DNA of 62,940 nt from Ginglymostoma cirratum (lineage: Eukaryota). Made by a program: the position numbers and the translations under genes. This document shows, one piece after another, positions 6,588 to 59,141 of this stretch. Position 1 is the first letter of the stretch. Each line of letters opens with the position of its first letter. The DNA is taken from positions 42,520,305 to 42,583,244 of the forward strand of contig JAHRHZ010000021.1 of the NCBI GenBank assembly GCA_024137785.1, written 5' to 3'. The notes beneath the pieces were generated by a model, which was given only the letters and a program-made list of their open reading frames with translations, did no database searches and was not told the DNA's origin.

Positions 6588-6615
6588 GACGTTTCGGACC
6601 TAGACCCTTCATCAG
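6588..6615 (-). ncRNA. Minimal type I hammerhead ribozyme motif (PLE-borne)
   Basis: Minus strand reads CTGATGA-agggtctaggtcc-GAAAC-GTC: hammerhead core, short stem II, palindromic ACGT stem III, GUC cleavage triplet. Confidence 0.7.
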
Positions 6616-7105
6616 AAATGGGGGAGGGGAAGAGGGTTCTGAAATAAATGGGGAGGGGGGGGGAGGTGGATAGAAGATGGATAGAGGAGAGGATAGGTGG
6701 AGAGGAGGCAGACAAGTCAAAGAGGCGTGGATGGAGCCAGTAAAGGTGAGTGTAGGTGGGGAGGAGATAGGTCAGTCCAGGGAGGACTGTATCCACATCC
6801 CAAAACCAGCCCAGCTCATCCCCACCTCCCTAACCTATTCTTCCTCTCACCTATCCCCTTCTCCCACCTCAAGCCGCACCCCCATTTCCTCCCTACTAAC
6901 CTCATCCCGTCCCCTTGACCTGTCCGTCCTCGCTGGACTGACCTATCTCCTCCCTACCTCCCCACCTACACTCACCTTTACTGGCTCCATCCCCGCCTCT
7001 TTGACCTGTCTATCTCCTCTCCACCTATCCTCTCCTCTATCCATCTTCTATCCACCTCCCCCTCTCTCCCTGTTTATTTCAGAACCCTCTTCCCCTCCCC
7101 CATTT

Positions 7106-7133
7106 CTGATGAAGGGTCTAGGCCTGAAACGTC
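7106..7133 (+). ncRNA. Minimal type I hammerhead ribozyme motif (PLE-borne), sense to the PTPRZ1 pre-mRNA
   Basis: CTGATGA-agggtctaggcct-GAAAC-GTC. Stem I is weak (ttt/aag). Confidence 0.7.
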
Positions 7134-7682
7134 AAGCTTTCCTGCTCCTATGATGCTGCTTGGCCTGCTTGTGTTCATCCAGCTCTACACCTTGTCATAG
7201 CAGACTATTTCAGTTGTGTCATGGGCACTCCAGTGTAGTTAACCAACTATTTATTTTCCCTAGAATGATATAAAAATTTATTGTGACAATACTAGCTTTG
7301 TATTCTCCATCTGAACATCATTCCATTGAACACCTGATAGTAATCTCACTCAGTTGTGTAGGGGGCTATTACAATTGTTCTTTCCAACATTCATTGCCAA
7401 GGGTTGTTGTGCGTCTTTGTGCCACCTCCAACCAAGCCCAGAGTGCTGATGTAGCCACGTGTTTCATATATACCCCCAGGTAAACAACAAGAAAATCCAA
7501 CCTTGTAACTAGCCTTAAGTTGTGACTGATATATTGTTTCTATTTCATTATAGATTCTAGCATATCTCTATCTGTCTGCCTTTCAAGCTGTAGCAGAGTT
7601 TGACCCTATAAGCATAATCATACCAATTAGCAATGGTAGACTGAACCCAGATTTGCCAGGTTTGATGCATGTAAAACTCGGA

Positions 7683-8439: not shown

Positions 8440-8619
8440 GTCACTTAAATCAGAATAACTGGGTGAAGAAATATCCAATTTGCTCCGGTCCTAAACAATC
8501 CCCCATCAATATAGAAGATGGTTTTACTCAAGTCAACATGAATTTCCGAAAACTACTCTTTGAAGGCTGGGAACGTAAATCCAGTGGAAATACAGTCATT
8601 CACAACAATGGGAAAACAG
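8440..8619 (+). CDS. PTPRZ1: PTPRZ1 exon (mammalian exon 3 equivalent), start of carbonic-anhydrase-like domain
   Basis: tttcttcag| ... |gtattc; 180 nt, phase 1/1; (G)[59 protein letters not shown] with the alpha-CA QSPINI motif. Confidence 0.95.
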
Positions 8620-8870
8620 GTATTCTCTCATTGTCTTATTTCCATATAAGATATCATAGCTACATTTCAAGATATATTTGGGACTGGTCTGTTACATATT
8701 AAATAGAATTAAGGTGCCTTTACTGCTTTCTTTCTCTCCGCTTACTTTGGATGCCTTATTGCTGAAATTCATTCTACAAACATTATTCCTCTGATGTCTG
8801 TTTTAGTAACACGTCCAATATATTTACAACAGGATAACTAACGTCAAAACCTTTTATTCTCCATCTTCAG

Positions 8871-9019
8871 TGGAAATGAATTTGACAGATGAATATTACA
8901 TCAGTGGTGGTGGCATGAAGTCCAGGTATAAAGCAGGCAAGATAATGTTCCACTGGGGCAAGTGTAATGCAACAGATGGATCAGAACATAAAATAGATGG
9001 ACAAAAATTTCCATTGGAG
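8871..9019 (+). CDS. PTPRZ1: PTPRZ1 exon 4 equivalent (CA-like domain); absent from the ORF track
   Basis: catcttcag| ... |gtgatt; 149 nt, phase 1/0; (V)[49 protein letters not shown] with FHWG and GSEH motifs. Confidence 0.96.
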
Positions 9020-9225
9020 GTGATTTGCTTTTTTTAATATTTAACCTGAATTTATATATTTAATATACAAACGTACCAACACATTGATTTTATGATGAAA
9101 ACTGCTCTAGACTCTACTTGAGGCTTGAAAGCTCACGACTCAACAGATCCACATAGCACTTTTTTGAAAGCAAAGAAAGAAGGAAACTTCAAACTGTGTA
9201 TGATCAGAGGTAAAAGCAGACATGA

Positions 9226-9360
9226 AAATAAAACAAAGAACTGTGGATGCTGAGGATCTGAAGCAAAAACAGAAATTGTTGGAGAAACGCAGCAGGTCTG
9301 GCAGTATCAGTGGAGGGAAAGCAGAGTTGACATTTCAGGTCCAGTGACCCTTCTTCAGAA
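9226..9360 (-). mobile_element. Short PLE-type element, family 2, with degenerate hammerhead motif at its 5' end
   Basis: Homologous to 10012-10174 and 38954-39198. Minus strand begins ttCTGAAGAagggtcactggacctGAAAtgtcaactc. Confidence 0.7.
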
Positions 9361-9585
9361 AAAGTAGAAACTCAAGTTGGGATTTTTTCCAGGGTATGGA
9401 AATTCCGTTGCTAGGTATGTAGGATATGAGGGGCCATGTGGCATGGTGAAAGAATGTACTTTTGCACTGTAAGCATGCATAATACCTATAGAACTTAACT
9501 ATCAAAAGGCTCCATGATCTAAACTATGGTACACAACTTTTGATAGACTGTAAACCACAACTTTTTGAAAAGCTGGCTTGACTTG

Positions 9586-9937
9586 ATGGCGGCTGAGTGG
9601 TAAGCACTGCTGCCTCACAGCACCATGGGCCTGGGTTTGATCCCAGCCTCAGGTTACTGTGTCTGTGTGGAGTTTGCACTTTCTCCCTGTCTCTGCGTGG
9701 GTTTCCTCCGGGTGCTCCAGTTTCCTCCTACGATCCAAAGAGTGCAGTTTAGGTGGATTGGCCATGCTAAATTGTCCATAGTGTCCAGGGATGTGCAGTC
9801 TAGGTGGTCTCGCCATGGGAAATGCAATGTTACAGGGATAGGGTAGGGAGAGGAGGTGGGTCTGGGTGGGATGCTCTTCAGACAGGCAGTATGGACTCAA
9901 TGGGTCAAATAGCCTGTTTCTACACTGTAGAAATTGT
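9586..9937 (+). mobile_element. V-SINE (HE1-like)
   Basis: ggctgagtggtaagcactgctgcctcacagc..gggtttgatccc head, V-domain tgtgtggagtttgcac..ggtttcctccgggtgctcc, CR1-like tail. Confidence 0.88.
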
Positions 9938-10011
9938 AGGACTTCATGAAAATTACAAAAAACTAAGAGATGCTTATCCCTGCAGTGTAGGGTTGAGAGT
10001 GCAGAGTGCAT

Positions 10012-10174
10012 TAAAAACCAAAAGAACTGCGGATGCTGTAAATCAGGAACAAAAACAAAGTTGCTGGAAAAGCTCAGCAGGTCTGGCAGCATCTGTGGAG
10101 GAGAAAACAGAGTTAATGTTTCGGGTCCAGTGACCCTTCCTCAGAACTCGATTCATCCTCCACAGATGCTGCCG
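10012..10174 (-). mobile_element. Short PLE-type element, family 2, with a small inverted segment and 13-bp TSD
   Basis: TSD gtgcagagtgcat at 9999-10011 and 10175-10187. The terminal cctccacagatgctgcc is an inverted copy of internal ggcagcatctgtggagg. Confidence 0.8.
10110..10149 (-). ncRNA. Minimal hammerhead ribozyme motif, family 2
   Basis: Minus strand gagtt-CTGAGGA-a-gggtc-actg-gaccc-GAAAC-att-aactc: 5-bp stem I and 5-bp stem II. Stem III is altered by apparent CpG decay (cg>ca). Confidence 0.75.
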
Positions 10175-11769
10175 GTGCAGAGTGCATGCCTGCAACTCCC
10201 ACCCTATCCTGATAAAACAGGGGCATCATGAATGGGGCTGGGAGTTCTGGGATAAGGTCATGGACTCCATTCTAATAGATCCATAAAGCTTCCAATCTCC
10301 AAAAATCTATTTCATCATTCCCTAGGTAAGGAGACTGTACCAAACCCTTTGGGCTAGCCCGAAGTGCATTATAGCCAATGGGCAAATTTAACTTCAGTCA
10401 ACTGCTGGTATGCCAGTCTATTTGGGATAGTTTACTTTCTATTTATTGAAAACAAATTTTCTACTCTTAGTCAGGTAGCTTTATTTCTTCCTGTGTTTCC
10501 TCCTTTCTCATTTTTAAATTTGACCTAATAATGTCCTGAATCCTAGACCATCCCCTGCTATTACATTGTGTCCTTGCTCAAAGTAATTGCCCGGAACTAA
10601 GTGTACCATTTCCCCATTCTTTTTTGGCTTGTAAATATTTTCAAACATTTTTTATTTGAAGAACCATTTTTCAAACGGATTATTAATCAAAGATCCACTC
10701 CTATTTAAACTATACTGCATAACACAAACTATATGAAATTGCTGCAAGTAAAGGGTGTTTTTCTGGTCACGTCTCCAGCCACCACTCACAGGCTTACTCT
10801 TAATTATGGCAACTTAAATTGTTGGCTTGTCATTCTCACATGGCTGGCCAATCATTACAAGGGGGTTCATGGATCACAATGATCTAGAAAGCAATCCTAT
10901 GAATGCAGAAAGTACTACCTTCTTTGCTACATATTTTAGACAATTAAAATATGAACTAATATGACTTTTTACTTTTACTCCCTTCCTAATTTGCCCGCTT
11001 ATCCTTTCTGCTATCTTCCTTCCACTGTCAGGTTGTCTGTAATACATTGCTAATGCTCCCGGTCTCATTTGTCACTTTGGACAAATAAATTCAACTTTTG
11101 CACCATCCCCGTGCCTTCTCTGTTTCTAATAGTGTAATGAAATCTTTTATTGAAATGAAATGAGATGCAATGAAATCTATTGCTAGCCCTTTCTACTCCA
11201 TTTCTGCTTTATATTTTGTAGCCATTCAGTTTCACTTTACTGTCTAAACTTAGATTAGGACATGTTAGTCAGTGGTATTCCATAGTTGCCTCTCTAGAAT
11301 TTTAATCCTGCAACTTACCAGTTTTAATTGCACTACAAGAAGCCAAACTAATCTCTGGTTTTGGCAAATATACACATTTCCTGAAATTTTTTTTCTTTCC
11401 CCTTTTCTAAAGTTCCAACCTTGTTGAGTTGCTTTCCCTTTGCCTCATCTTGTTTCTCTGTTCCCCTTAATACCATCTCCATAAAAACCTCTCAGCAAGC
11501 ACATAGATCCCAGTTTTATTTCGATAAAGGTTAAAATCTTAACTGGATCATAACTGTTATAGAACTCGCCCCAGGTCCTAAGGAATCTTGAGCCTTGAGC
11601 TATTGCCCTTACTTGCTTTTCTAATTGCTGCAGTTTCCTTTTTAGCAGATCTCCAAATATATATCTTTGTACGATATCGGTTCCCTAGTAGACTGCACTT
11701 CCAAGCTACTTCCTGTCCTACTCCATAATATCCATTCCCTGATAACTAGCTGGCAAGGCTAACAAAATA

Positions 11770-12480
11770 GATATGAATGTAGGAGTTATGGTCAGTCAGT
11801 TTGCAGATGGCATGGAAATTGGTGGTGTGGTTAGTAGCAAGGTGTAAAGCTTACGATACCAGAACGAAATGAACAAAGGAAATTTAATCATGAAAAGTTT
11901 GAGGTGATGCATTTTTGGAGGTTTAACCTGGTGAGGGAGTACACATTAGTTGGTAGGACTCTAGGAAGTATAATGTTCAGAGGAACCTTGATGCACGTGT
12001 CCATAGATCCTTGAAAGACTCAACTCTAAATGAATGTGAGCTCCTTTTTAAGACATTGGAACATTAGAAAACAGGAGCAAAGGTGGGCCATTCAGCCTTT
12101 GAGCCTGCTCCACCATTCAATATGATCATGACTGATTGTCCAATTCAGTCCCCTATTCCAATTTTCTCCCTGTACCCGTCAATCCTTTTAGTCCTAGGAG
12201 CTATATCTAACATTAATTGTTTTGGCTTCAACCACTTTCTGTGGTAGTGAATTACACCGGCTCTCCTCTCTGAGTGAAGACATTTCTCCTCCCCTCACTT
12301 TTAAAAGGTTTACCCCTTATCTTTAAACAATGATCCATGGTCTGGATTCCCCCACCGTCAGGAACACCCTTTCTGCATCTAATCTGTCTACTTCTGATAG
12401 AATTTTATAGGTTTCTATGAGAGTTCTCTTCATTGTTCTAAACTTCAGTGAATATAATCCTAACCAATCCAGTCACTGGC
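11770..12480. mobile_element. Two old CR1 fragments: plus-strand RT piece (about 11770-12020) and minus-strand 3' end (about 12055-12480)
   Basis: cagtttgcagatg..aaattggtggtgtgg and gaggtgatgcatttt on the plus strand; aacattagaaaacaggagcaaaggtgggccattcagcc is a typical reverse CR1 terminus. Confidence 0.7.
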
Positions 12481-12499
12481 AGTCACAGGTAGAATGAAC

Positions 12500-14280
12500 C
12501 TTTGCCTCTAGAGAGGTGTGTACTTGCGAATGATCATGTAGTGTCACATGCAGGGTGGCCATAAGAATGGAACAGGAGTGGAGGCAAGGAGCTATTAAAA
12601 AGCATTCATGTTAACTTTGGATTTGATGATCTCCTCACTAAGGTGGTAAGACCTGGCTATACTCATCAACACTTAAGGGTTGAAGAATGCCAGAAATCAG
12701 CTGCTATACAGGATGCTTCTCTGAGATGATCAATACTTACCACTGTAAGGTCTGTAGTCCTTGAGATGCATGAAGAGGCTGCTCAGCTCTGACATTGTAG
12801 TGTGTAACATGACTGTACAGCTAAAACGTCAGTTAGACATGTGATGGTTTAAAGTGTGTATGTGAGATTGGTTTTAACAATGAAGTATGTCATCTGTGCC
12901 ACCTATGTACCATGCCCTCACACAATGTCTCAGGTTTGCATCTGGATAGGAGTGGAGACTGCTCTGTAGTGAGGTCTGTTTGTCTGGGCGATTTGGGTAC
13001 ATGATACCAGGGCCTTTTGTGGCTGGAGCGTTCAGAGAGAGTGTTTGGAGAGTGTGCTGCCCACAGGCAGGCTCAGCCTCTTCACCTACACGTTCCACAA
13101 GGTTTGAAATTCACAAGCAGAAGGGAGGTAGAGGGCCTAGTATCTCTGGGCTATTTCATCCTTGCCCAGTTGTGGAGAAGTGCCAGTGATGTATTCACCA
13201 GAATGCATTCCCACATCTAATCTAGAAAGAGCACCTATTGAGGTGAGAGTCTGTGAGCTGATGGAGGGGGGAGGTAAAAGCCTTGCTTCTTCCTCTCAGC
13301 AGGAGCTGAGGGGCTGGCTGTTTGGGGTGGAGGCAGTGTGGGTGCCGCTGGTAGATGCTTGAGAGGCTATTAGTTCTGCAACAGTGTTGAAGTTAAGCAT
13401 CGTTAGTATACATTCAGTGGTGGTAATGAAAGTGCAGAATGACACAGCGCAACAAAGCTTACTTGGTGGTCCCGACCTGCAGGTCTCAGATCTCCATGTG
13501 AGTATTTCAATCCTCTCCAACCAGTTTGAGGATTGTCTCCTTACTTAGGGTGAGGACACAAATGTCATCCACCTTTCCCAACCCATCCTTGCTATCACCA
13601 CCCTGTCATGTGATACTTTCTCCTGCAATGAGACAAAAGGACGAAATAGTGAGATGGAAGTGGCTTGAAGGGCTGTTCGTGATGATGCAGGGTCAGAGAT
13701 GATGGTGGTGAACTGCTGCCAGCCGTGGATAGGAAGACAGAGGGCAGGGGTTAGCAGATTGTGAGGATGAGTTGGGTGAGAGCCATTGAGTGAAGATGCT
13801 ACACACAACAGATTGGTAGACCATTAATCTTGATGGGAGGTGTGTGTGCAATGGCAGAGTTAGTGATCATGGGAACGCAGGAAGTCATTGACCTTCTTTC
13901 AACATTGTTGGCTGCTTCTTATTGCCAGGACACTGCACAGACCCGGCTGGCTATCTCTGTCCAGATTAGGAGTATCTAATGCCACAATTTCCCTTCCCCA
14001 CCACTCCATTCACCTCCTCTGTTGGGTGAAGCAGTGTGCTGGCTTGACTTTCTTGGCCAGGTCCCTCTGTGATGAAATCGACGAACCGAGTTCCTGATTT
14101 GCAACATTTGAAGCGGATGCTGGGATATAAACATGGACCTGCAGTCTAAATGCCTCTGCTGTCACACAATTGAAGGAGAATAGTGCGGTGGAGCCCGGAT
14201 CCATAATTAATCAGTTGAGCAATAGAAGATTGCAAGAGGAAAGTTGCCACGAGGCATGGTGGAAAATCTTTCATGGAACT
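12500..14280 (-). mobile_element. Probable PIF/Harbinger DNA-transposon relic (Myb/SANT-like gene remnant)
   Basis: Minus strand 13967-13872 reads, with one frameshift and stops, IWTEIASRVCAVSW..RSSQQC*KKVNDFLRS, a Myb/SANT-like helix pattern. A later ttgcag|EKVSHDRVV piece lies near 13622. The region is richer in GC than the flanking intron. Confidence 0.5.
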
Positions 14281-15016
14281 CTCCATAAATGACACCTAGT
14301 CCAAAAAAATGGAAAAATTCAGACCTACATTTTACAGTTTTTGTGCTCACTTCAGTTCAGCAACATAGATTTGTTCAGTTTATTAATTGTGGTAGCCTTC
14401 CTATTTCTGTATTCCAGTCTTGTATCTACATTTCTTATGATTCACATAGGCTGCCTCTGGTGTATTTAAAAGCCCTTCGTCCTGATCAATCTTTTTCTGA
14501 TGGGAAAATTGATTTCAATGGACAACAGATAGTTCTGGTCTCGATCTAAAACGTAAAGTCTGCAGAAAGTTCATTCCTTTTTTATCTGCAAAACTAAATA
14601 CAATCCTCATCGCCAGTGTGTGAGAAAGACATTTTGCTGATTCAACAAAAATGGAATACAGTTTCATTGGGCTCAATTTATTAGCAATAGGGAACATTCA
14701 GAAGGCAATGAATTGAATGTCTTTTTTTTTATTGAACACATGCAAATTTGTTCTGATTTCGGACAAAATTAATTTTTCTAAACTCCATTTTGATAATCTC
14801 AATTCCAAAAGAGATTTGAGACTCAATCTTTCTTTATATATGAGCTGGAATGATTCTCCTGATTTCTCAAAGCCAAATGTTGAAACAAATTTTATGATGT
14901 TATTTAATTAGCATTTTTAGGGAATATCTTCACAACACCATCATTTAGATTTCAGGCTTTCATTATTGTGTTATATAGCCAATTTGGTGGCACAAATAGA
15001 GCTATTTATCTACTGT

Positions 15017-15137
15017 TGAAGGGTAATACCTGAAACGTTAACTGCTCCTTTCCTCCAGATGCTGCCTGGCCTGCTGTGTTCTTCCAGCCTCCTGTTTGCC
15101 TACCTTGGATTCTAGCATCTGCAATTTTTTTTGTTTC
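15017..15137 (+). mobile_element. Short PLE-type element truncated inside the hammerhead core, 10-bp TSD
   Basis: Begins tgaagggtaatacctGAAACGTTaactg, continues gatgctgcctggcctgctgtgttc..ggattctagcatctgca. TSD tatctactgt at 15007-15016 and 15138-15147. Confidence 0.75.
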
Positions 15138-15537
15138 TATCTACTGTAGGCTGGTGCTTTCTGAGAATCTGTTTTGAATTTCCCATTTCCATGTTATTTT
15201 GGAGGCCTGGAGCCTTGCAGCCAGCAGAGCGAAAAGAAAATTTCACATTATTGTTCTGATGTGAGCTAAATTCTAATCCAGGTCCCCAATTCAGTAAGAT
15301 AGTCTTTCGATTCAGTGCGTCTGATATGCACGCAATGTTTTAGTTTGTATCGTAATTTAAATTTCTGTAAATATCAGAAAGGTGTTTGTGTGGGAATGAT
15401 GGGGATGTTGCATAATTGTACATAAATTGAAACAAAATAAATGTGTCTTATATCTTCTACACCATGAAAGTGTAACTAACATTTATTCTACACACATAAA
15501 GATGAGAATAGTAATTGTTTTGTCAAAATGTTTTCAG

Positions 15538-15633
15538 ATGCAAATCTTCTGCTTTGAGTCAAATCTTTTTGAAAGCTTTGAGGAGGCGGTGCAAGGACAA
15601 GGCAGTCTCAAAGTTCTGTCTGTCTTATTTGAG
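15538..15633 (+). CDS. PTPRZ1: PTPRZ1 exon 5 equivalent
   Basis: ttttcag| ... |gtaatt; 96 nt, phase 0/0; MQIFCFESNLFESFEEAVQGQGSLKVLSVLFE. Confidence 0.95.
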
Positions 15634-15708
15634 GTAATTGAGTTTTAATGCATTTGTGTAAAGCCATTGATCCTTCTTTGGAAAGCTGTAAACTATGCAA
15701 AAGATTAA

Positions 15709-16035
15709 TTTTTTCCATTTATTCATGGGATCTGGGCATCATTGGCTCATCCCTAATTACCCAGATGGCAGTTAAGAGCCGACCACGTCGCTGTGGGTCT
15801 GGTGTCACAGGTAGGCCAGACCAGGTAAGGATGGCAGATTTCCTTCCCCCACAGGACATTAGTGAACCAGATGGATGTTTTCCAGACAATCAGCAATGGT
15901 TTCATGGTCTTAATTCCAGATTATCATTGAAGTCAAATTCCACCATCTGCCGTCGCGGTATTCGAACCCAGATCCCCAGAACATTACCTGAGTCTCTGGA
16001 TTAATAGTCGAGGATTAATACCACTAGCCGTCTCC
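15709..16035 (-). mobile_element. Second tRNA-derived SINE family
   Basis: Minus strand head ggctagtggta..gggttcgaatacc (B box at 15957-15969). Tail gggtaattagggatgag..cccatgaataaat is shared with the LINE at 28576-29512. Second copy at 47890-48215. Confidence 0.75.
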
Positions 16036-16639
16036 AATATTTTTCATTTTTTTCAGACCAGCCCCGCGTTTCTATTTCTTCTTTCAAATCTGTAATTGGG
16101 TGCAAGAGAGTAAATTTTACAAATGTGTACTTCCTTTCCCATTGGGAGCACAGATCAGATGACAAACTGGGAGGAAAATTTTCAATTGCCCTATGTATGC
16201 ATGGCTCCTTACTAAAACATAAATTGATAGAATATGACCGGACTTATTCCTTGTCCAAGGAAAGGAATGTTTGTTTATGGGCATTAATTCCTTACATTTG
16301 CAATGACTTCACGCCCTATCTTGGAGCTGGCAATTGCTAAATTTGTCTCTTTTAGCATTCCATACTTTGAGAAGAAACACACTAATTTTATTGTCACGCG
16401 TGCTAGCTCACTCTTTGTTAGGATTTCAACACTGTTCAATTCCCTACCTCTACAATCGGCAGGCTTCTCAAATGCAAGATCATTATTTGATGCTTCGCTT
16501 CCTTGCCCTTTTGGAAGTTTTCAATCATGCACTTTAGAACTTTCTCAGTTGGAAATCTGCAATGAAAGAGCATTTTTTTTTTTGGAGAAATTGAAATACG
16601 ATTGAACCTTCAGAGTTCCAGAATGCAAATTGCAGTATC

Positions 16640-17445
16640 TACCAATTGTGGTAGATGTCAATAAATGGTCCAAACATATTTGTCTCCTCCCTGCATGATA
16701 GGTTGTAAGGTTTTTCTGTGAAGCACTGAAATTTGTCTATGGGCCAGCAGCTCAAACACAAAAGCCTCTTAAAGAGTGCCAGTGGCAAGACACAGCATAT
16801 CAAAAAGGTGCCAGTCCTAAATCACTGGTCAGAGCAATTTGAAACACTTGGCATTGCCAAGTGCACAATGCATGAAACTGCCATCCGCCAACTGACAGCA
16901 GCTTGTCAAAGAAGAACTGAATAAAAGCCCAATTGTGTGACTCACATTAATTAGATGAACAGAATAAAGCCCCAGGGTTTAAGGAATTTCATCTGAAGCC
17001 TTGAAGCATGGTGACTCTATCCTACACACCAAGTTCTTGAGCTTTTCATGGCTTGTGAGAACCTGTGTGATGCTGTTATCATCACGTTTTACAAAAAGAA
17101 AGGAGAAAAGTTAGATTGCTCCTCCTACTGTGGGATCACCCTCCTTTCTATTGCTGAGAAGATCCTGACTGGAATGCTACTTAACAGGCTGGTCTCTGTC
17201 GTTGCAAAATAAATTCTTCAAGAAAGCCATTGCGGTTTCAGACTAAACAGAGCTTTCACAGACACTTATTTGGCTAAGTACAAATACCAAGAAAAATGCG
17301 GTAAGCAAAGCCAAGGCCTGAATGTCACCTTTCTAGACATCACAGCAGTTGGCACAGTGAGCAGAGATGGACTTTGGAAAGTCCTAAAAAACATTGAAGT
17401 CCACCAACATCATTGCCGTAGTAAAGCAACTTCATGCTGACATAA
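16640..17445 (+). mobile_element. Degenerate RTE-clade LINE RT fragment
   Basis: Translates in pieces to DAVIITFYKKKGEKLDCSSYCGITLLSIAEKILTGMLLNRL..ESHCGFR..QEKC, typical of the RTE RT N-terminal region. Confidence 0.75.
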
Positions 17446-19745: not shown

Positions 19746-19872
19746 ACAGTTTATTTTTCAGCTCGGAAATATTTGCCAACATTTTCAGGCATTGCAGGGA
19801 ACCCTTTCAGAGATACAAGACTCAAAGCTCCCCAAAGGTGTTCTTGAAGCTGCATGTAACCCAAGCCAACTT

Positions 19873-48494: not shown

Positions 48495-49385
48495 GGCACA
48501 ACAATGCCTCCATTTCATCAGGAGGCTAAGGAAATTTGGCATGTCCATAAAGGCACTCACCAAATTTTATAGATGCACCATTAAAAGCATTCTATCCGAA
48601 TTCATCACAGCTAGGTACGGCAACTGCTTTGCCAAGGACCGTTAAAAAAGAACTAGAAAGTTGTGAACACAACCCAGTCCATCACACAAGCCAACCTACC
48701 ATCCGTTACATTTCTTGCTGCCTCAGGAAGGCATTCAGCATAATCAAAGACCCCTCCCACCCTGCTTATAATCTCTTCCATTGGGCAGAAGGTGCAAAAG
48801 GTGAAAAAGACGTACCAGCAGATTCAAGAGATAATAGGAACTGCAGATGCTGGAGAATCCGAGATAACAAGGTGTGGAGCTGGATGAACACACCAGGCCA
48901 AGCAGCACCATNNNNNNNNNNNNNNNNNNNNNNNNNNNNNNNNNNNNNNNNNNNNNNNNNNNNNNNNNNNNNNNNNNNNNNNNNNNNNNNNNNNNNNNNN
49001 NNNNNNNNNNNAGGAGCAGGAAAGCTTGACGTTTCGGGGCCTAGACCCTTCATCTACGCCTGAAACGTCAAGCTTTCCTGCTCCTATGGTGCTGCTTGGC
49101 CTGGTGTGTTCATCCAGCTCCACACCTTGTTATCCCAGCAGATTCAAGTCCAGCTTCCTCCCCGCAGTTATTAGATTTCTGAATGAACCTCTCAAGTTTT
49201 AAACTTAATGTTGATCTTGCACTTTGTGCACCTTCTCTGCAGCTGCAACATTGTACTTTTGCTCTTTTCTATTACCTTAGTGGATTTGTACGGTATGATC
49301 TGCCTGTACTGTACTCAAAACAAAACTTTTCATTATACATAGGTACATGTGACACCTCAATAATAAATCAAATCAAAATCAAAAC
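48495..49385 (+). mobile_element. Rex1/Babar-type LINE 3' end, split by a PLE palindrome
   Basis: AQQCLHFIRRLRKFGMSIKALTKFYRCTIKSILSEFITARYGNC; ends aataaatcaaatcaaaatc. Confidence 0.75.
48829..49134. mobile_element. PLE 3'-end palindrome with 14-bp TSD; contains the 100-N gap at 48912-49011
   Basis: TSD ccagcagattcaag at 48815-48828 and 49135-49148. The arms share private variants. Confidence 0.85.
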
Positions 49386-49428
49386 TTGCCTTTTTTGGAG
49401 TCTCATGCATTTTCGATTTATGTTGCAG

Positions 49429-49457
49429 ATTTTGGTGCCTTTTTTATAACGTTAATG
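49429..49457 (+). pseudogene. Partial duplicate of PTPRZ1 exon 11 with its acceptor (pseudo-exon or alternative exon)
   Basis: agtctcatgcattttcgatttatgttgcag|attttggtgcctttttt aligns with agtctaacttattttttgttatatattgcag|attttggtgcctttttc at 51562-51609. Confidence 0.6.
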
Positions 49458-50270
49458 GTACAGTTTGTGACCCTGACACCTCCAAAGCCTACTTTGACCA
49501 AGCTTTTTGTGATCTATTCTACTGTCTCCTTTTGTGAAATTCTCACATTTTGCTTTGTATTGCTTCCTGAAGTGATTAGTGACTTCTCAGCTTTTTCTTT
49601 CACCGATAACAAACTGATTGTTGACATGCAAATGTTTATAGAAAGAAAACTGAAATGGCTAGAATATGCAAATTAAGGTTGATGCAAATTTGTTTGAAGT
49701 GTTTTAATCGTAAGATTCTCTGAGCTGATAAATGCGGAAAAAAACGAGGTATTTGTTGCTTGGCAACAGATGTGAGAAAAACAAGAACATTTTGTATTTA
49801 TGTAACACCTTTAACATACTAGAATTTCCAAGGTGCTTCACAGGAAGCAATCTGACTAAAGCTTATTAGCTCTGTTTCTTTTGTATGATAATTTTATTGG
49901 AGGTATTAAAATGAGCTACTAAAGGCTGCTTTTTGTAATGCTTGCAAAAAATTATGTCCTTTTCTGCACATACCAATGCTTGATTTTTCTCAAATAAAAT
50001 TCGAGGAAAATCAATAAACCATCATCTGCTAATACGGTCAACAGTGATTTCTAGAGTTACAGTGAGGATTCTTATAAACTGAAATCAGAATTCTTCCTCG
50101 GTCTAATTGCCATTTCAAGAGAACATGTCCATTCAGTTCCTTTACATTGTTGGGGTTAGTAAGCATTCCACATTTAACCATGCTTCAGCCAGAGCAGCAA
50201 ATATTTCTGATCAATTTAATTTCTCCAGCCCTGAAGTTGTGGCTTCAAGCAGACTCCTGGTGTCAATGAT

Positions 50271-50457
50271 AAAATGTACTGCAGACGCTGGAGAATCCGA
50301 GACAACAAGCATGGGGCTGGATGAACACAGCAGGTCAAGCAGCATCATAGGAGCAGGAAAACTTACGTCATCCAGCCCCATGCTTGTTGTCTCGGAAGTT
50401 TTCCTGCTCCTATGATGCTGCTTGACCTGCTGTGTTCATCCAGCCCCATGCTTGTTG
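50271..50457. mobile_element. Three-piece PLE 3'-end palindrome with 12-16 bp TSD
   Basis: Minus arm to 50364, short plus piece 50368-50395, plus arm from 50396. Direct repeat tcctggtgtcaatgat at 50255-50270 and 50458-50473. Confidence 0.85.
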
Positions 50458-50659
50458 TCCTGGTGTCAATGATCTTTTTGATTTCATTGAACGACCATAC
50501 TTAAAGCATTCATGTTCTCTACCTGATATTATATACAGCGTTTCCAGTAGATAGCAGCCAAAAGCAGAATAACTGGCTGATTTCTTCATTTCTTCCATTC
50601 ACCTAAGGATGTGGTCCTTCCACTCATGCACTGATTAAAGTAACTTACCTTGGTACATA

Positions 50660-51490
50660 TCATTTCGCATACAATACTCCAGGTGTGGTCTTACCAAGAC
50701 CCTGCGTAACTACAATAAGCCACCCAACTTCTGAATGTAAATCCTTTTGCATTGAAGCCAAACATATCATTTTTCCTTCCGAATCACTTGCTGCACCTGC
50801 CTTTTTCCTTCCATAGACTAGTGTAGAAGAATACCCAGATCACTTTGTGCATCCAAATTTCCCAAACTTTTCCATTTAAATGATACTCTGTCTTTCTTTT
50901 TCTCACCCCAAAGTGTATAGTTTCACATTTATCCATATTACACTGCATGTGCCATGTGTTTTCTCATACTTACAACTTGTCCTGAAGCTTCCTTGCATCC
51001 TGTTCACAACTCTCAATCCCATCTAGTTTTGTGTCATTAGCAAAGTTCGAAATGTTGCATTTGATTATCTCATCCAGGTCATCTGTCATGAATAGCTGGG
51101 GCCTCGCCACAGAAAAATACCCATTTATTCTCACTGTCAATCAAATCTCGACCCATGTCTGAAATTAACCCCAGTCTTGCGTGCTTTACTTTTACCCACT
51201 GGCCTCTTAAGTGAGACCTTATCAAAACCATCCTGAAATCAAAATGTGCAAGATTGCCCTTTTCTATATCCTCAGTTACATCCTCAAAAACAGTCCAGTA
51301 GATTATCTAATCATGATTCCCCTTTCATAAACCTATGCTGACTTTGTCTAATCCCATTAGTGCTTTCCAAATGTTCTGTTATCACCTCTTTTATAATAAA
51401 CTTCAGCATTTTCCCCATGACTGATGTTAGGTTCATTAATATGTAATTCTGTTTTTCTTCGCCTCCCACCTCTTTTTTTTAAATGTGGGG
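50660..51490 (-). mobile_element. Old CR1 ORF2 fragment
   Basis: acaatactccaggtgtggtcttaccaa is the reverse of LVRPHLEYC; tttgtgtcattagcaaa is the reverse of FANDTK; cctttcataaacctatgctgact is the reverse of an SQH.F.KG-like motif. Confidence 0.75.
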
Positions 51491-51592
51491 TGATATGGTG
51501 CCTTACAAGGAATTGCATTTATTCTGGTCAAAATTACAAATATGGAAATGATTTTTTTTCTAGTCTAACTTATTTTTTGTTATATATTGCAG

Positions 51593-51639
51593 ATTTTGGT
51601 GCCTTTTTCAATTTTAATGACACATTTGATGATGCAGAG
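51593..51639 (+). CDS. PTPRZ1: PTPRZ1 exon 11 equivalent (47-nt linker exon)
   Basis: Branch point ctaac at 51565, tatattgcag| ... gag|gtaatg; 47 nt, phase 1/0, which bridges exon 10 (phase 1) and exon 12 (phase 0); (D)FGAFFNFNDTFDDAE. The length equals the mammalian exon as I recall it, but protein similarity is low. Confidence 0.78.
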
Positions 51640-53386
51640 GTAATGCAAATATATATTATCCTTTGGCTGTCTGTTGTTGACTTTAAAGAGTTATTTTATG
51701 TATGAATTCATCTGCAAATAGGAGTGCATTTTCATTTAGTACCTCGTTTAAAAGCTTCAATACATGTCTTTAACTACAAGAACAAATAATTTAAGAATAA
51801 ACAAGAGTTCCAATAAATATTGTTATTATTTTTAACTCTCCCTCTTATCTGCATTACAATACGCAATGTGCATTTTTTTTTGTCAATCTTCTCAACAGTC
51901 GAATGTTTCTCTCCAGATTAAATACCGAGCTTTGACAGATTTTAATCTGGTGGCAAAATAAATAAAACTGTAAGTGAAGGTGAAAACGCAACGTCAATGA
52001 ATGTGACATTAAAAGTGACATGACCAGTTTAAGTTGTTCAAGGTTTCCTTTACTTTCCATGTTATTTAATATGCAATGTTATCAATTATTTGTACATTAT
52101 CCAAACAAGAATAATTAAACCTCCTGAGATTTTAAGCATTTGGAGCAGTACAGTCCAAAAAAAAATGCTCACTTGCATCGCTAGTAGAGAAACTCAGTTG
52201 GTCTGGAAATATCTGTGGAGAGAGAAACAGAGTTAACATTTTAAATCCAACATGACTGTTCTTCAGTACCAACTCTTGCCCCCTATATTGGAGTGGGAGG
52301 CCTTCTGGCTTCTGGAGTGAGTCAGAGTTCAACAAATTACCAGAACCGGGAAATGGAGCAGGATAGATTTAAACCAGCTCAAGCATGTTCTGAGTACATT
52401 GCAGATGACTTATAAGCAAACTGTTGTGGGTAACAGGTGGGGTTGGGAGTTCGAAAATCAGTCCCACTGTCAATTTGGCAACTATTAAACCAATACACTT
52501 TGGAGAAAATAGGAAGCTCATCCCTGATGATTTGAATTAGTGGGTGGAATTTATTGCCATTTGACCATGACACATTTGCTGGACAGATAGGCATTGAATC
52601 AGAAATGAGGGTGGTTTGGGTCTTGGTTAGGGTGGATGGAGATGACATTGTTTTCCCATGTCCAACTTGGTTAAGTCCATGGTGGGGAAGCTTGTAGATG
52701 GCCTTCCTGTCCTGTCAACAATTGAGGCCCTCAAATGGTCAATTGATAATGTGCCTCATCCCAAATACTCATGGCTGGTGGTGGCCTTGTCCTGAAAGGA
52801 GCACAACAAGCAAAACCATGCAGGCTAGCTTGTGGGCTCATTTGAGAGGGGAAAGGAGGGGATAGTCCTGCTGAGTGCAGCGCCTGTACTCTTGTTCACC
52901 TCCAAACCCTCCCCCTTACACGCTGCGACCTCCACTCCTGCCATCAATCAATGTAATCCAGTGATGGCCAAATGTGGGTGTGATACTGGCAGCAACCTTC
53001 CCTGGTGGTACTTCTGTTCAAAAGATGACTTTTGTCATCCCAAAGAAGACCTACCACTGTCACCCATCTGAGTGATGGTGGGCCTCTCGCCTGGATGACA
53101 GCCTTCAGCTAAGACACCCATCACCTCCACTAAATCCAGCACAATATTCTAAGCGCACAGATAAAGGGTATGATTCTTATTTGGTTCTTTCAATGTAACT
53201 TCAGCAGAAACCTTGGAGAAATAGTGTAAGTTGCCATTTTTAGTCACTAAGGCTGTTTCCCAACAGTTCTGCTCGTTTTAAGCTGGCAAAACCCTTGCAG
53301 AAGTTCTATGTCAAGTTTGGTCAATAGAATACATAAAATGAAACATGTTTGCATGTATTTTTTTTAAATCTTACTTTCTCCTTCAG

Positions 53387-55982
53387 CCAACAGAAAGTAA
53401 TCCAGAGCAATCAGGACCAATTTTACTTGAAACTCACACAATGTCAATATTTAATCACAAATGGAATGAGAAGAGTGTGGAAGCTGAAAATGAGAAGTCC
53501 ATATATATCAAAGACAAAGAACAGAGTGCAAATGCTGTTCCTAATGAAAAGTATTTTGTCAAGGGAAATGAGGAAATAACCACAAAGGTTGCCATCCCTG
53601 ATGTTCTTTATACCCCTTCCTTCTCTGCGGTTGAAACAATATCGAAGGAGATACGTACTGCACTGCCCCACGAAACCATGATCCCTTCCATAGCTGAGGA
53701 CTCGGATGATTCTTCAGCGGTGGGACCCCTGGAATTGAATGAAATTTTCACCATCACCCACCAAGCAAGAATTCCAGTCACATCCAAAGAAACCCCACAC
53801 TTCAGTACTGCGACGGAATCTGACAATATATTGAGTGTACCCACCATTGGCACCAGAAATATTCCTCGGGCTGTAACGCCTGAAGATGGCCTCACAAGTA
53901 ATTCAACTCCCAATGTATTGCCTGAAACAATGATTGTCATACCTCGGATGGATTCTAGTAAAGAACAAATGATTTCAACCAGTGAAAGAATTAGTTCCCA
54001 AGAGCTCAACACGGTTCCTGATTCTGTCACTTCTGCAGCAACAGTCCAGCCAGATATGGTAACCTCTTCCACCAGCAATGTACTTGCGTCTCGTGAGATG
54101 TTTTCTGAAACTCTTCTTCCTCCTGACCAAGAGATATACCTCCGTAGTACTCCAGATTCCATTGACAAATTAAATACCTTGCGTAAAGAGAAGGAAATCC
54201 AAGCTACCTCTCCTTACTCTACTGGTGAGATGGTGTTTCAAACTACCACTGTGCCCTCAAACAGCGAAGTGTCCTTTCATGCTACCTCTGCTTATACCCA
54301 TGAGGAAGTACTGCTGCAGCCTACTCCCTCCTTATTCAGTGCATCTTTTTATCAATCTTCTGCTTCTGCTGATAGTGAAGTGTTTTTTCAAATGACAAGT
54401 CCTTTATCGACTGACTCAATGTCTCTGTATGTGACCTTTGATTCCCCTGCTAGTGAGACATTTCCTCCTTCTGCCCATACTTTTTGTAGTAGTCAAATGT
54501 TGCTTCAAGCTACTTCTGTTGCTGCTTATGATGAAGTGGGACCGTCTGGTTCATCTCTACCAGCCAATATTGATGCTCAAGCTACCCTTCCTTTAGCTAG
54601 CAATGTGGTGTCTCTTCATACTACCCCTGCTTCCTCCTCTACTGAGAAACTCCCTTATGACCTTCAGAGCTCCTCTGAAATTCCAGCATTACTCAATGTG
54701 ACTTCTGCTGCATCTAGCAGCGAGCTGGTGCTGCATACCACTGCTGCAACCTCTGTTGGCGACCTGTTGTTTGAATCTGCCCTTCCTTTACCCAGTGGTG
54801 TGATGTCTCTTCAAACTTACCCTAGTTCTAAAAAGAATGAGATATTTCTTCATGTTACTCCTGCTCTTTCCGACAGTCTGATGTTGCCTTTGACTCCACC
54901 TGTTGTTCCCAGTGATGAGACTTTGAATGTTACTTCTGCACCCGTTGTTACAGACACATTGATTCAAGTGATCCCTACTTCCTATGAAAGCAAAATGTCT
55001 TCGTATGCTTCTCCTGTTTTTCCCAACAGTCAAATATCAACTGCAGCTGCTCCTGCTTTATCCACTAATGAATTATCCCTGCAAGCTACTGTTAGTGTCT
55101 TTGATAGTACAAGATCATTGAGTGATACCGAAACTTTGAGGAAGAATGAGACAATGCTTTATGTTTCCCTCATGCCTTCCAGTGATAATGCACTCTCTTA
55201 TGTTTCCTCTACTGTTTCCAATAACCAGTTTTCTGTTCCTACTAGCCTGCCTTTATTGTTTGATGATGCAATGCACATTTCTGTTCCAGCGACAACTCCC
55301 AGCAGTGAGCTAACCATGCAAGGTTCTGCTGCTCCCTTGCCATCTCCTTCAGTGCCTTCTTCTGTCACATTGCTGAGTGAAAGTCAGGATGGTGAACTGT
55401 GGTCTTCTGGTTCAGAAATTGATTTGTCAGAGGCAGATGGTAGTGTTCCAACAACATTTTACCCCAGATCTGAGGAAGAAAGTCACTTAAATGGGCAGAT
55501 ATTCAGCACTACAAAGGAGCAGAATAGTCAGTATCCCCAAATCCTATCAGGATCACCTGCGTCTTCTGAAGAAAACTCATTCATCACTACTTTTAACTTC
55601 AATTTAACAGATTCATATGTGGACAGAAATCATTACATGGCAACAATACTGACACCAAAAGCATCCACTGGAAATCACAAAAGACCAACAATAATAGGAA
55701 GACATAATTGGACCACAACAGTAACTACGAAACCATCCCCATCATACTCTAGGACTAGTACCTTCCTGACTACTGAAGAGGAGAGTGGTTCTGGCCAGAG
55801 TGCATCTGATAGTCTAACTGTTAATGAAACTTCAGTGGTGCTAAGTTCCCTCGAGTATAATTATAGAGCATTAGACAGTACACCAGGCACAGGTAAAGCA
55901 GCAGAACCAAGGACGTCACTGCCTTCAGCTCCATCTGTAACTAGTGGGCTTGAAACAACTTTATTCAACATTTATGAGGCAG
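53387..55982 (+). CDS. PTPRZ1: PTPRZ1 exon 12 equivalent: large Ser/Thr/Pro-rich chondroitin-sulfate attachment region
   Basis: ctttctccttcag| ... gaggcag|gttagt; 2596 nt open, phase 0/1. Motifs DGELWSSG, LTTEEESGSGQSASDSLTVNETS and the C-terminal SVTS..F...EA match mammalian PTPRZ1. Confidence 0.95.
54188..55345 (+). repeat. Degenerate coding tandem repeat, about 30 units of 13 aa (39 nt)
   Basis: Manual parse, e.g. EMVFQTTTVPSNS / EVSFHATSAYTHE / EVLLQPTPSLFSA / QMLLQATSVAAYD / ELVLHTTAATSVG / EIFLHVTPALSDS / ELSLQATVSVFDS. Confidence 0.78.
54222..54230 (+). promoter_or_regulatory. Internal alternative 5' splice site in exon 12 (short receptor isoform)
   Basis: CTG|GTGAGA after 54224, phase 1 like the distal donor. 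Protein context QATSPYSTG|E parallels mammalian QTTQPVYNG|E. Confidence 0.75.
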
Positions 55983-55987
55983 GTTAG
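55983..55987 (+). other. In-frame stop within the exon 12 donor (secreted phosphacan-type C-terminus ..EAG*)
   Basis: GAG GCA G|GT TAG: failure to splice adds Gly and then stops before the transmembrane exon. Confidence 0.75.
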
Positions 55988-58956
55988 TTATGATTGAAAA
56001 CCATTTGCAAAACCAAAGTTGAAATCAATGCAGCTCTGGAGGGGATGGTCAGTGACCTTGGTAGTGGGATTCTTGTTGATGCCAGAAAAGGCTCTGTACT
56101 AAGATGACCTGCTCATTTCTCTACGTGACTGTAATCATGGTTGATGGGGTCTATAGTAGCTGACCTACATCTGTAAAATTCAGTAGAATTTTAGGTTAAC
56201 ATAAAACAAACTTTGAATTTATATTTTTAATCATTCTGATTTGGTAATGATCCAAATTAAGTCAGAATTGCCATCAGAATTGTGTGCTATACTTTACATA
56301 ACTGCATTGTTCTCAATTTATTCAGAAATTGAGCTATCGTGAGACTGTTTGCTGAGTAGCACAAAATGATCTCCTACAGTGTAAACTAATGCTAACTGTG
56401 AATAATTTATATTACAATATCAAGATTCAGAAAGTGTTCGAGCTTTATTATAAATGAGCACTGTGTTAGCATCTTTGGTAATCTGAGAAATGTGCAACAT
56501 TGCAATTGACTAATATAGTGAATCTTGTACAATGAGTACAAATATATTTATACCCTTCTAGGAAATTAACAAAAAGAAAAACTTGATTCATATGGAAGAC
56601 AGTAGGGGCGTATATCAATGCATAGACAAATGATGGTGCCTAAACCACAAGTATTCCCTTATCAATTTTTTTCTTTACATTGTGACAGTAACAAACACAG
56701 AGCACAGGTTTTTCAGATATGTTGTGTCATTTACTTCCCTGACTCATGTAGTTAAAAACATTATGGAAGTCAGTGCTTTTGGGCTAGGGCCGATGTTCGG
56801 TTTACACACAGTAGCATTTAATTTGAAATAAAAAGCCATTACTCCCTTGCAAAATAGCATAGATCAAAAAATGAGTAATATTGCTACAAACTCAGTGTGC
56901 ACAATAATATTTGGTCAAATGAGCGCAATAGTGTTTGAGTTTAAAGAAGGTCTGGTATTTTAATCGAAATAATTTAACTTGGTTCAGTTTGTTGTCATGG
57001 GTGCCTTTCTTAATGTACGGCGTTGTATGAAAATTTACAGAATTTGATTTTAAAAGCACATATATCAACTGGCAGTATCAAACAACTGTTTTATAATTTA
57101 TTTAAAAGTCAATGTGTTTTGGGGAAATAATACTGCTGAGAGTTCCAGCAGTGCTAATATGTTATCGTTAACAATCCTGATATGTCTTTATTGTCAACTG
57201 GATCCTTAGAAGTACAAGACAGTGATACCTGTGTTGTTGTATATTTCTCGCTGAGCTGTCTGGTGTCATTTTCAATTTTGTAGTGGGACTCGGTATAACC
57301 ATTACAACAGTAGATTAGCAATTAATCTTTCTTACAGTCAATGTGTTGATTAATATACCTTCTGTCCCTATTCATATATAATATAAAATTTCCTTTTCCT
57401 ACAAGGGGCATTGCAGTAATATAGTTGATGATTGATGCAAGATTTTGAAGTAAATTCTGAAACAATTAATATGTGCCAAACAAAAATGAGCCAAGTGAAG
57501 CTGCAACCAGACAATACACTGGCTCCATTTTAAACTGACCGTTGGAGGTTTCCAAACATATCTACCACTATTAGGTTTGTGTTGTGTTCTCCAACCCACA
57601 AATGGCAAGTTAACATGTAATTTCATAGCTGGCAAATTTACAATGCGAGTGATTGGACCAAACTCTTTACATAAATGGATGAATTTAGTGTGCACTGTTA
57701 TTATGTTCTTGCAGCAATTCTAAATAAGTGGTAAAAGAAAAGTTAAGCTTTTTTTACGTGACTGAATATTGTATGAAACATAAAGATATTTTGTGTGATA
57801 CCAGGATCCTGTTACTCACCGCAGAAAGTCCATGGTGTATAATAGTTTAGTGAGACCAGGCTCCTCTCCCAGAAGCTCTCAATAAGTCCGAGATTAGGGG
57901 CAGAGTCGTGCATTTGTTCCACAGCACCCTGTGATTTTAGTCAATTATTTACTTGATGCAATAAGCTTAAAGCATTCCCATCTGTATCTCATTCTCTGAT
58001 CTGTGATCCTGGCATGCCAGACTTTAGGACAGGAGATTTGTCAAGCAGACCTACAGCCCTAATGGTAATTCTAACCAATTGGTCAAAAATGACATCAGAT
58101 TTGTGTTCAGCTGTAAAATAGCATGCAGTAGGAAAATGATATTAGGGGACAAACGTGGTCATGTGGCTTCGCAGGAAATACTCAACTATCCAAAGAAAGC
58201 AACTGTCTAGTAATCAAATTTTCTCAGACAAAAGACAGTCTCATCTCATACTGGTAGGTGTACTGGTCAGAATTTTGTTTTAAAGAAAAACATATTGACA
58301 AAACTGAGCATGATCTTATATTAGACCAAATTTTAAAAAAATCAGTAACATTTTGGAAATCGAATGTATTGTAACCCTTGCCCGTGCTTATTCACCTTAC
58401 TTGATGTAGAAACATTGTTAATTCATTGTCATGTGGAGCAACGTTTATGCTCAGCCATTCCTGTAATTGGATGGTTCAAATCAATTGAAAATATTTTCAT
58501 ATCTCCACAGATTTCTTCTACATGAGGTCCATCCAAAAGTCATCAGCTTCTGAAAGTAAAGGAACAAATATTTTTTAAAACAACCACGTAATGTCTATTA
58601 GGGAATGCCCACAATCCTCAAAAACATAGGCTCTGGTCCAGACTTTACTCAGTAATATCTGGTGACTGGGCCTACCATAATCCGCCAAAAATGTATAACA
58701 TTTGATAGGTGTTTGGAATTTTGGTATTCCCACTACAACACGGTGAAGGTAATTTGTCTGCTTCAGAATGTCCACGACCCTGTCATGCCTGGCACAGCAA
58801 TGATACATTACATATAATTTGGTTAAACTTCATTGGTGGGCAAGTGTTCACTTGTTCCGCCCAGTGGTGAAAGCTTAACAGCCAGCCTCCAGCCTCCAGC
58901 CTGGGGTGTTCCTATTCACAGCTCCCGTAAGCACTTTCAGGATCATCCATGTATTT

Positions 58957-59141
58957 GAGATAAAAGGTACTGCAGATGCTGGAGAATCCGAGATAACAAG
59001 CATGGGGCTGGATGAACACAGCAGGTCAAGCAGCATCACAGGAGCAGGAAAACTTGACGTTTCGGGCCTAAACCCTTCAAGTTTTCCTGCTCCTGTGATG
59101 CTGCTTGACCTGCTGTGTTCATCCAGCCCCATGCTTGTTAT
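58957..59141. mobile_element. PLE 3'-end palindrome with imperfect 15-bp TSD
   Basis: Minus arm to about 59079, plus arm from 59079. Flanks atcatccatgtattt (58942-58956) and atcatctatgcatct (59140-59154). Confidence 0.85.

Follow-up and report, generated by a model that had tools for sequence, protein, structure and literature searches.

Minimal hammerhead ribozymes (min-HHRs) of metazoan Penelope-like elements (PLEs) were defined in 2014, solo and opposite-strand copies included, and were found to have no activity as monomers and low activity as dimers (PMC4209133). In PLEs that encode an endonuclease (EN+) the role of the hammerhead has been stated to be unclear (PMC8557442), in Anolis its activity needed the PLE protein (PMC11167929), and eight of nine frog hammerhead dimers tested were uncut (bioRxiv 10.64898/2026.07.22.740005). 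PLE copies are described as an inverted truncated copy plus a tail of 30-40 bp on one side (PMC8557442), and the Anolis PLE has two internal starts of reverse transcription, with both DNA strands extended (PMC11167929). Only Neptune and Poseidon have been found among vertebrate PLEs (bioRxiv 10.64898/2026.07.22.740005), with the CX4CxxC linker marking Neptune and Nematis and absent from Poseidon (PMC8557442), whilst retrozymes without long terminal repeats (non-LTR) occur as hammerhead tandem repeats in one chondrichthyan genome (bioRxiv 10.64898/2026.07.22.740005). Minimal hammerheads are reportedly also treated by Lunse et al. in 2017 (as cited in PMC6765202). Here these systems are compared with hammerhead motifs in the introns of the PTPRZ1 ortholog of the shark Ginglymostoma cirratum, within 62,940 nucleotides of contig JAHRHZ010000021.1 (the window).

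It is very probable that these motifs are min-HHRs in the 3' tails of Neptune-like PLEs, brought in by 16 intronic insertions, that they likely serve the RNA of the element as dimers, and that in the PTPRZ1 pre-mRNA they are likely inert passengers. The motif itself is directly observed. A minimal-hammerhead descriptor, of the kind the initial annotation had proposed, was applied at four levels with 200 dinucleotide block shuffles of the window as the null. The core boxes gave 17 matches (shuffle mean 5.8), adding a helix II of at least 4 bp gave 9 (0.25), adding the palindromic minimal helix III and UH gave 5 (0.025), and adding a stem I of at least 3 bp, which completes the descriptor, gave 4, with 0 in 200 shuffles. 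At every level the observed count was unmatched by any shuffle, so that a chance origin is ruled out and the motifs are real.

The four copies that pass in full are all of family 1, with C3 at 6615(-), 7106(+), 40071(-) and 40699(+), the copy at 7106(+) having G-U in place of G10.1-C11.1. The initial annotation had listed 16 positions, all of which do carry sequence of the repeat family, 6588 and 40044 being the exact H17 bases of minus-strand copies. It had called six copies complete, which stands for four; helix II of 20294(+) breaks off after 1 pair, and in 39015(-), whose C3 lies at 39048, position 10.1:11.1 is an A-C mismatch. The full descriptor is passed by no family-2 copy in the window, as 10144- has A at 16.2, 39064+ is without G12 and G16.2 and 9358- has a stem I of 2 bp. 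The core boxes CUGANGA and GAAA...UH are intact in the four passing copies and in those at 20294, 39048, 9358, 10144 and 45411, and the ACGU palindrome (15.1-16.1, no loop 3) is present in 6615, 7106, 20294, 39048, 40071 and 40699 and altered in the others; most copies are decayed. A profile built from 11 copies was searched against the window with nhmmer at E<0.01, and 24 of 34 hits (E<=10) fell below that threshold, representing 23 arms that form the 16 insertions, with no profile hit in the reversed window. Arms beyond those listed initially are 10146+, 39859+, 49053+, the pair at 50268-50459, 52267- and 59077+. An Rfam covariance-model scan gave no hammerhead family among 18 matches at E<=5, its microRNA matches reflecting only a long hairpin near 40.3-40.5 kb. 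Monomer folds of six copies formed the full hammerhead in none, and no copy was clearly more stable than its shuffles (z -2.1 to +1.1), which is uninformative on the ribozyme, since dimer-type motifs are expected not to form it alone.

The link between family 1 and a PLE open reading frame (ORF) can also be read directly. At 46769-45708(-) lies a 5'-truncated, frameshifted ORF whose main pieces are 76-89% identical to the PLE protein P0001, with the domain order reverse transcriptase (RT), linker and then C-terminal endonuclease, and with the hammerhead (HHR) at 45411 downstream on the same strand. P0001 is over the Pfam GIY-YIG cut-off (23.2 vs 22.6) and has the CX4CxxC linker, and in P0001, P0041 and P0087 a linker zinc finger of the form CX2-5CxxC and the Cys pair within GIY-YIG are present; from the copy in the window the middle Cys of the linker and a central endonuclease stretch are missing, and its pieces alone matched no relevant Pfam family. 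The hammerhead at 20294(+), which is 3' of an endonuclease C-terminus, provides a second ORF link. Location downstream of a PLE ORF is therefore direct for family 1 (45411-, 20294+) and for family 2 by tail homology only, the two tails being homologous at about 70-75% identity. Judged from their sequence the carriers are Neptune-like Penelope elements with the hammerhead in the 3' tail, and the original assignment to the minimal type I hammerheads of Penelope-like elements holds, given the ORF remnant upstream of the 45411 copy and an architecture the same as that of PMC4209133.

Relatives of the element are found elsewhere. P0002, a zebra-shark gene model, has a C-terminus that reads through into a homolog of the hammerhead region, which shows that the same tail exists in zebra shark. 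The ray and skate gene models P0023, P0028 and P0031, named as host-gene isoforms, contain PLE ORF sequence and are probably mis-annotated or exonised PLE insertions. Against proteins such as P0033-P0063, identity of the RT piece is 57-72% for unnamed ones and 50-55% for those of molluscs. Comparison of the family tail with the ORF start of 120 fetched PLE proteins, few of them full length, gave no match, and the shark-tail patterns had 0 matches in viral and genome contig collections.

The second line of evidence is the architecture of the insertions, in which target duplications and head-to-head arms, one tailed and one tail-less, are directly visible. Head-to-head pairs make up 7 of the 16 insertions (A to G below), each pair being one insertion, which the initial annotation had not recognised, and in 6 of the 7 the edges carry target duplications of 13-16 bp (score at least 13, against a null maximum of 9 in 1000); the seventh, G, has a degenerate duplication that is not above the null. 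Eight single copies were tested for duplications, of which 2 have a clear one, 1 a borderline one and 5 none. With C3 counted as q1, one arm of every pair reaches q125-137 (tailed) and the other ends at q60-97 (tail-less), so that the one-sided tail with an inverted truncated copy, which is the signature of EN+ PLEs, is found in 7 of 7 pairs. The arms are 87-100% complementary over 66-218 bp. The features are as follows.

8440..55982, + strand: PTPRZ1 ortholog, exon starts near 8440, 8871, 15559, 18497, 22494, 30282, 36476, 36810, 51593 and 53387.
6474..7213, both strands: insertion A (family 1, inverted); tailed arm 6489-6787(-), tail-less arm 6793-7198(+); target duplication of 15 bp at 6474-6488 / 7199-7213.
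6588..6615, - strand: min-HHR, full descriptor pass, antisense to PTPRZ1.
7106..7133, + strand: min-HHR, pass with G-U at 10.1:11.1, predicted to pair with 6588-6615 in pre-mRNA.
9230..9360, - strand: solitary tailed arm resembling family 2; intact core with U15.2, G-U at 10.1:11.1 and a stem I of 2 bp.
9999..10187, both strands: insertion B (family 2, inverted); 13-bp duplication; HHR 10115-10144(-) with A at 16.2.
Within 9999..10187, + strand: short arm of insertion B, starting at about the predicted cut site.
15013..15137, + strand: solitary tailed arm, diverged, with U in place of A6; a 12-bp duplication is possible (borderline).
19939..20384, + strand: PLE 3' fragment; endonuclease C-terminus 19938-20099; HHR 20294-20321 with helix II broken.
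36139..36311, + strand: family-1 arm; G8 deleted, U15.2.
38940..39214, both strands: insertion C (family 2, inverted); 16-bp duplication with 1 mismatch.
39019-39048, - strand: HHR of insertion C, A-C at 10.1:11.1.
39064-39093, + strand: HHR of insertion C, without G12 and G16.2.
39859..39939, + strand: old arm resembling family 2, decayed, into which insertion D went.
39928..40775, both strands: insertion D (family 1, inverted); 13-bp duplication 39928-39940 / 40763-40775.
40044..40071, - strand: min-HHR, full descriptor pass, antisense to PTPRZ1.
40699..40726, + strand: min-HHR, the best of the sense copies; cut predicted after 40726, and pairing with 40044-40071 predicted in pre-mRNA.
44449..44577, + strand: single arm, 5'-truncated within the core; 16-bp duplication with 1 mismatch.
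44880..44986, + strand: single arm, helix II broken; 12-bp duplication.
45313..46775, - strand: 5'-truncated Neptune-like PLE; RT, thumb, zinc-finger linker and parts of the GIY-YIG endonuclease; frameshifted, central part missing.
45384-45411, - strand: HHR of that PLE, after its 3' region; A at 16.2, stem I lost.
48815..49148, both strands: insertion E (family 1, inverted); duplication of 14 bp; contains a gap of 100 N; each arm is truncated within the HHR.
50255..50473, both strands: insertion F (family 1, inverted); 16-bp duplication; + arm start is the predicted cut site, - arm the same or without exactly C17.
52185..52268, - strand: old decayed family-2-like arm, profile match.
58942..59152, both strands: insertion G (family 1, inverted); degenerate 13-bp duplication, not above the null.
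Within 58942..59152, both strands: arm starts of insertion G, - arm inside the core, + arm at most 2 nt from the predicted cut site.

Such a structure could be explained by a staggered endonuclease cut with an offset of 13-16 nt, reverse transcription then being primed by both DNA ends at the two internal start sites and the resulting pair of truncated cDNAs being linked head-to-head; priming from both ends and head-to-head joining are what we infer from the arms. Insertion D landed in the tail of an older family-2-like copy, and its 13-bp duplication consists of that old tail. In metagenome loci (L006, L010, L033, L037, L045, L069, L080, L088, L117) short insertions of the head-to-head form are common as well, with their centre just upstream of the hammerhead.

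The metagenome loci also bear on whether the fold is maintained. A search pattern holding the core, helix II and ACGT, with stem I left free, gave at least 120 loci, of which 32 have a PLE ORF hit and 40 have short flanks; among the matches listed, to which all further metagenome counts refer, the end of the endonuclease is 72-167 nt upstream on the same strand in 26 of the 32 ORF-bearing loci. A stem I of at least 3 bp is present in 20 of 31 tail clusters (65%) compared to 20% when permuted, a value reached in 0 of 10000 permutations. Two-sided changes are found at the three inner pairs of stem I across 33 rows (23 cluster representatives and 10 window copies), a count in which helix II is fixed by the search pattern and which leaves out 8 of the 31 representatives (L004, L018, L033, L035, L039, L084, L086, L114); as these eight include two without stem I, the 31-cluster test is the fair count. 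The G10.1-C11.1 pair, with the extra base after A9, is G-C in 30 of the 33 rows, G-U in 2 and unpaired in 1, although 23 of these rows are fixed as G-C by the pattern and the window rows are G-C in 7 of 10. Covariation of stem I among PLE families makes it likely that selection acts on the ribozyme on behalf of the element. The structural conservation suggested by the initial annotation is thus borne out, but not through the family-2 stems it quoted. Whilst gggtc/gaccc is real, the 5-bp gagtt/aactc is found in only one of three family-2 copies (10144-), the shorter 4-bp AGTT/AACT being present in all three. As covariation gagtt/aactc is rejected, for in 10144- it sits at the fold-back junction and is the complement of the start of the inverted arm. 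In favour of the preferred reading, CpG sites are mutated in 3 of 9 cases in helix II and 3 of 18 in helix III. The shark core and helix II are nearly identical to those of many metagenome contigs (L001-L120), and judging by sequence similarity horizontal transfer of the element is possible.

Whilst selection on behalf of the element is likely, cleavage of host introns is a different matter. By analogy with the described systems the RNA of the element would self-cleave weakly as a dimer through the ACGU palindrome, probably with help from protein. The initial annotation had proposed that sense copies cut PTPRZ1 introns by pairing with one another, and such copies, dimerising in cis or trans, might alter splicing or transcript level. 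Two sense copies do pass the descriptor, the core has a slight, non-significant excess of conservation, and domesticated intronic hammerheads are known in amniotes (PMC6155905). However, the only intact sense copies, 7106 and 40699, are 33.6 kb and 8 exons apart, and each is transcribed after an antisense arm that is 92-97% complementary. In predicted folds their cores are fully paired to the 6615 and 40071 arms, and the predicted cost of freeing the core in context is 46.9 (7106) and 43.9 (40699) kcal/mol, compared to about 9 without the partner arm. In a tail-out pair transcription always reaches the antisense arm before the sense one, so that a sense ribozyme would be caught in a long hairpin on emerging. 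None of the six unpaired sense copies is intact, and with the two intact copies predicted to be paired and all six unpaired ones defective, cleavage of host introns is unlikely. The active dimer scaffold is predicted at +1.7 to -3.5 kcal/mol, far less stable than the inactive co-folds of the same 41-nt pieces (-24 to -30). The arms also have no strand bias (13 of 23 on +, p=0.68), and the published cases are of low activity or protein-dependent, 8 of 9 frog dimers being uncut (PMC4209133, PMC11167929, bioRxiv 10.64898/2026.07.22.740005). Cutting of the introns by these copies is, on this evidence, highly improbable. If there is any effect on the host it might instead come from the long intronic hairpins, by way of double-stranded RNA, A-to-I editing or changed splicing, and not from catalysis. 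Hairpins of this sort undergo editing in vertebrates, and the arms here, with the complementarity and length already given, form predicted hairpins that are very stable, but the insertions are deep in introns and carry no mark of conservation, which leaves such an effect improbable. A number of points do weigh against regarding the copies as inert passengers derived from PLE tails. The folding is at equilibrium, with RNA editing, helicases and proteins ignored, and if active copies were selected against, this could be why no unpaired sense copy is intact. Core positions of nine family-1 copies have 0 private substitutions in 85 and one deletion, against 31 in 766 in the flanks (p=0.064, rising to 0.24 when the deletion is counted, the copies being chosen for having the core), an inconclusive count that is compatible with some constraint after insertion. 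Family 2 has no ORF in the window, and a tandem full-length PLE, or pseudo-long terminal repeats (pLTRs) around a full ORF, is likewise absent from it, with only 5'-truncated copies present.

The form of the insertions has alternatives of its own. That the head-to-head pairs are artefacts of assembly might be thought from the 100-N gap held by the pair of insertion E and from reports that such structures are troublesome for short-read assemblies (PMC8557442), yet the arms differ, with 87-97% identity in most pairs, their 3' ends are unlike and target duplications bound the pairs, and on these grounds it is rejected as almost certainly wrong. A more serious alternative is that family 2, together with the shortest copies of family 1, represents a non-autonomous element some 135 nt long, or was copied from the upstream pLTR of the transcript, and does not consist of random truncations of long PLEs. 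The family-2-like arms 10144-, 39048-, 39064+ and 9358- start at most 3 nt upstream of C3, 15013+ starts at q1, and no family-2-like arm has an ORF. Similarly, 29 of 64 complete metagenome copies start at most 24 nt upstream of C3 and 4 from there to 61 nt upstream, and the 29 suggest an RNA whose 5' end is fixed shortly before the ribozyme. Against this, the starts were judged copy against copy, without a family-2 reference that carries native upstream sequence, fold-back joining near a self-complementary ribozyme could give the same clustering, and retrozyme-like tandem arrays are absent from the window. A short unit of this type is possible, though truncation of long PLEs is preferred. The 3' ends of the metagenome copies are bimodal too.

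For the truncated PLE copies, a further lead is offered by the 5' breakpoints. Nine arms start within the first 60 nt from C3, and four of these, in three insertions, start at or adjacent to the predicted cut. In insertion F the + arm begins with q29, which directly follows C17, and for the - arm the start is either the same or differs only by the lack of C17. The + arm of insertion G starts at q27-30, and that of insertion B at q31, where the cut falls in family 2. For 3 of 7 insertions at the cut, a rough binomial calculated post hoc gives p=0.004-0.016, uncorrected. It may be that these breakpoints record cleavage by the ribozyme in vivo, with cut PLE RNA reverse-transcribed in the germ line and the ribozyme aiding head-to-head insertion, but this must be held as rather unlikely. 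The breakpoints of G and B can be explained by microhomology inside the self-complementary ribozyme, and none of 17 partial metagenome copies starts at the cut site (these being among 81 non-redundant copies matched to 21 ORF-linked references, with all loci selected for a complete motif). A search of the literature on PLE breakpoints or twin priming gave no title on this point, most subscription journals being outside its coverage. Insertion F also has a third piece, q69-97 of the tail, between its arms, and all three pieces have one base change compared to sister copies; this suggests that one template may have been copied repeatedly, with a jump at the predicted cut site. If cleavage does lie behind the breakpoints, copies in shark genomes could settle whether the hammerheads of animal PLEs cut in vivo, and the lead matters given that what the hammerhead does in EN+ PLEs has been stated to be unclear and that RNA ends at the cut site were not found in Anolis, in the parts of those papers available (PMC8557442, PMC11167929).

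The host gene is the PTPRZ1 ortholog on the + strand, with 10 coding exons mapped within the window, their edges approximate. PTPRZ1 is known as a neurally expressed gene. The initial annotation was right to place the motifs in PTPRZ1 introns, as exon matches in PDB are better for PTPRZ (79.7 and 91.2 bits) than for PTPRG (30.9 and 62.1), and none of the 16 insertions, which sum to 5,300 nt (8.4% of the window), overlaps the mapped exons. The large PTPRZ1 exon is 95% identical to a protein labelled whale shark and 94% identical to one labelled zebra shark, as befits a carpet shark, and within this Ser/Thr-rich exon there are imperfect 39-nt repeats at 54201-54867. Other repeats in the window include RT fragments (Pfam RVT_1) of the long interspersed element (LINE) type at 884-1843(+) and 20801-22201(-), which we take to be CR1/L2-like, and a dispersed repeat with a tRNA-like head at 2362-2560, 5840-6121 and 19381-19674, presumably a shark short interspersed element. 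A tandem repeat with a period of 7 nt surrounds a 10-N gap at 20608-20739, between a PLE fragment and a LINE fragment.

Taken together, the feature is real but ordinary, consisting of further examples of the class of motif described in 2014, mostly decayed and with no sign of a role in the host. In whichever host transcript it lay, a head-to-head insertion would keep its own ribozyme silent, and this would account for the tolerance of genes towards such insertions.

It is apparent that the resemblance to known systems varies. The domesticated hammerheads of amniotes in RECK, CTCL and DTNB are, as here, of type I and intronic, but they are conserved at one locus across species, whereas the window copies are multicopy, minimal, decaying and flanked by target duplications (PMC6155905). 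Non-LTR retrozymes share with the window short non-coding units derived from PLEs and type I hammerheads, but are defined by head-to-tail units with complete ribozymes, and the window copies are solo or head-to-head (bioRxiv 10.64898/2026.07.22.740005). Membership of the retrozymes is rejected, as the nearest same-strand copies, 44472 and 44896, are both defective and have separate duplications. The Anolis element PAc (Frangieh et al. 2024, PMC11167929) is similar in its pLTR hammerhead and in having two 3' end positions about 35-40 nt apart; it is unlike the shark element in being a Poseidon, a clade without the linker zinc finger, and whilst the cut site of PAc yielded no RNA ends in the available parts of that paper, three shark insertions break there, a weak lead. 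The Neptune clade (PMC8557442) is closer, with RT followed by C-terminal GIY-YIG, the CX4CxxC linker (here in close relatives) and inverted truncated copies with a one-sided tail, although the window differs from its description in having clear target duplications of 12-16 bp in unique sequence and no (TA)n targeting. The Neptune-like label is based on domains and linker, the linker being one that Neptune shares with Nematis.

Cartilaginous fish are not named among the species in the available parts of Fig. S3/Table S1 of PMC4209133, and a literature search on shark, Penelope and hammerhead ribozyme, in which most subscription journals were not covered, gave one paper, where shark is merely the origin of the name; shark families may be listed in the tables of bioRxiv 10.64898/2026.07.22.740005. 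It is nevertheless the min-HHRs of metazoan PLEs (PMC4209133) that the window copies follow, being type I with CUGANGA and one extra base, G10.1-C11.1, GAAA, a palindromic C-G at 15.2/16.2, no loop 3, UH and a helix I of 3-4 bp, and lying 3' of the ORF, with numerous copies standing alone and with pairs on opposite strands separated by 100-700 bp. Helix II in the window is short (4-5 bp) and is nearest to that of the Acropora Neptune example in the same paper.

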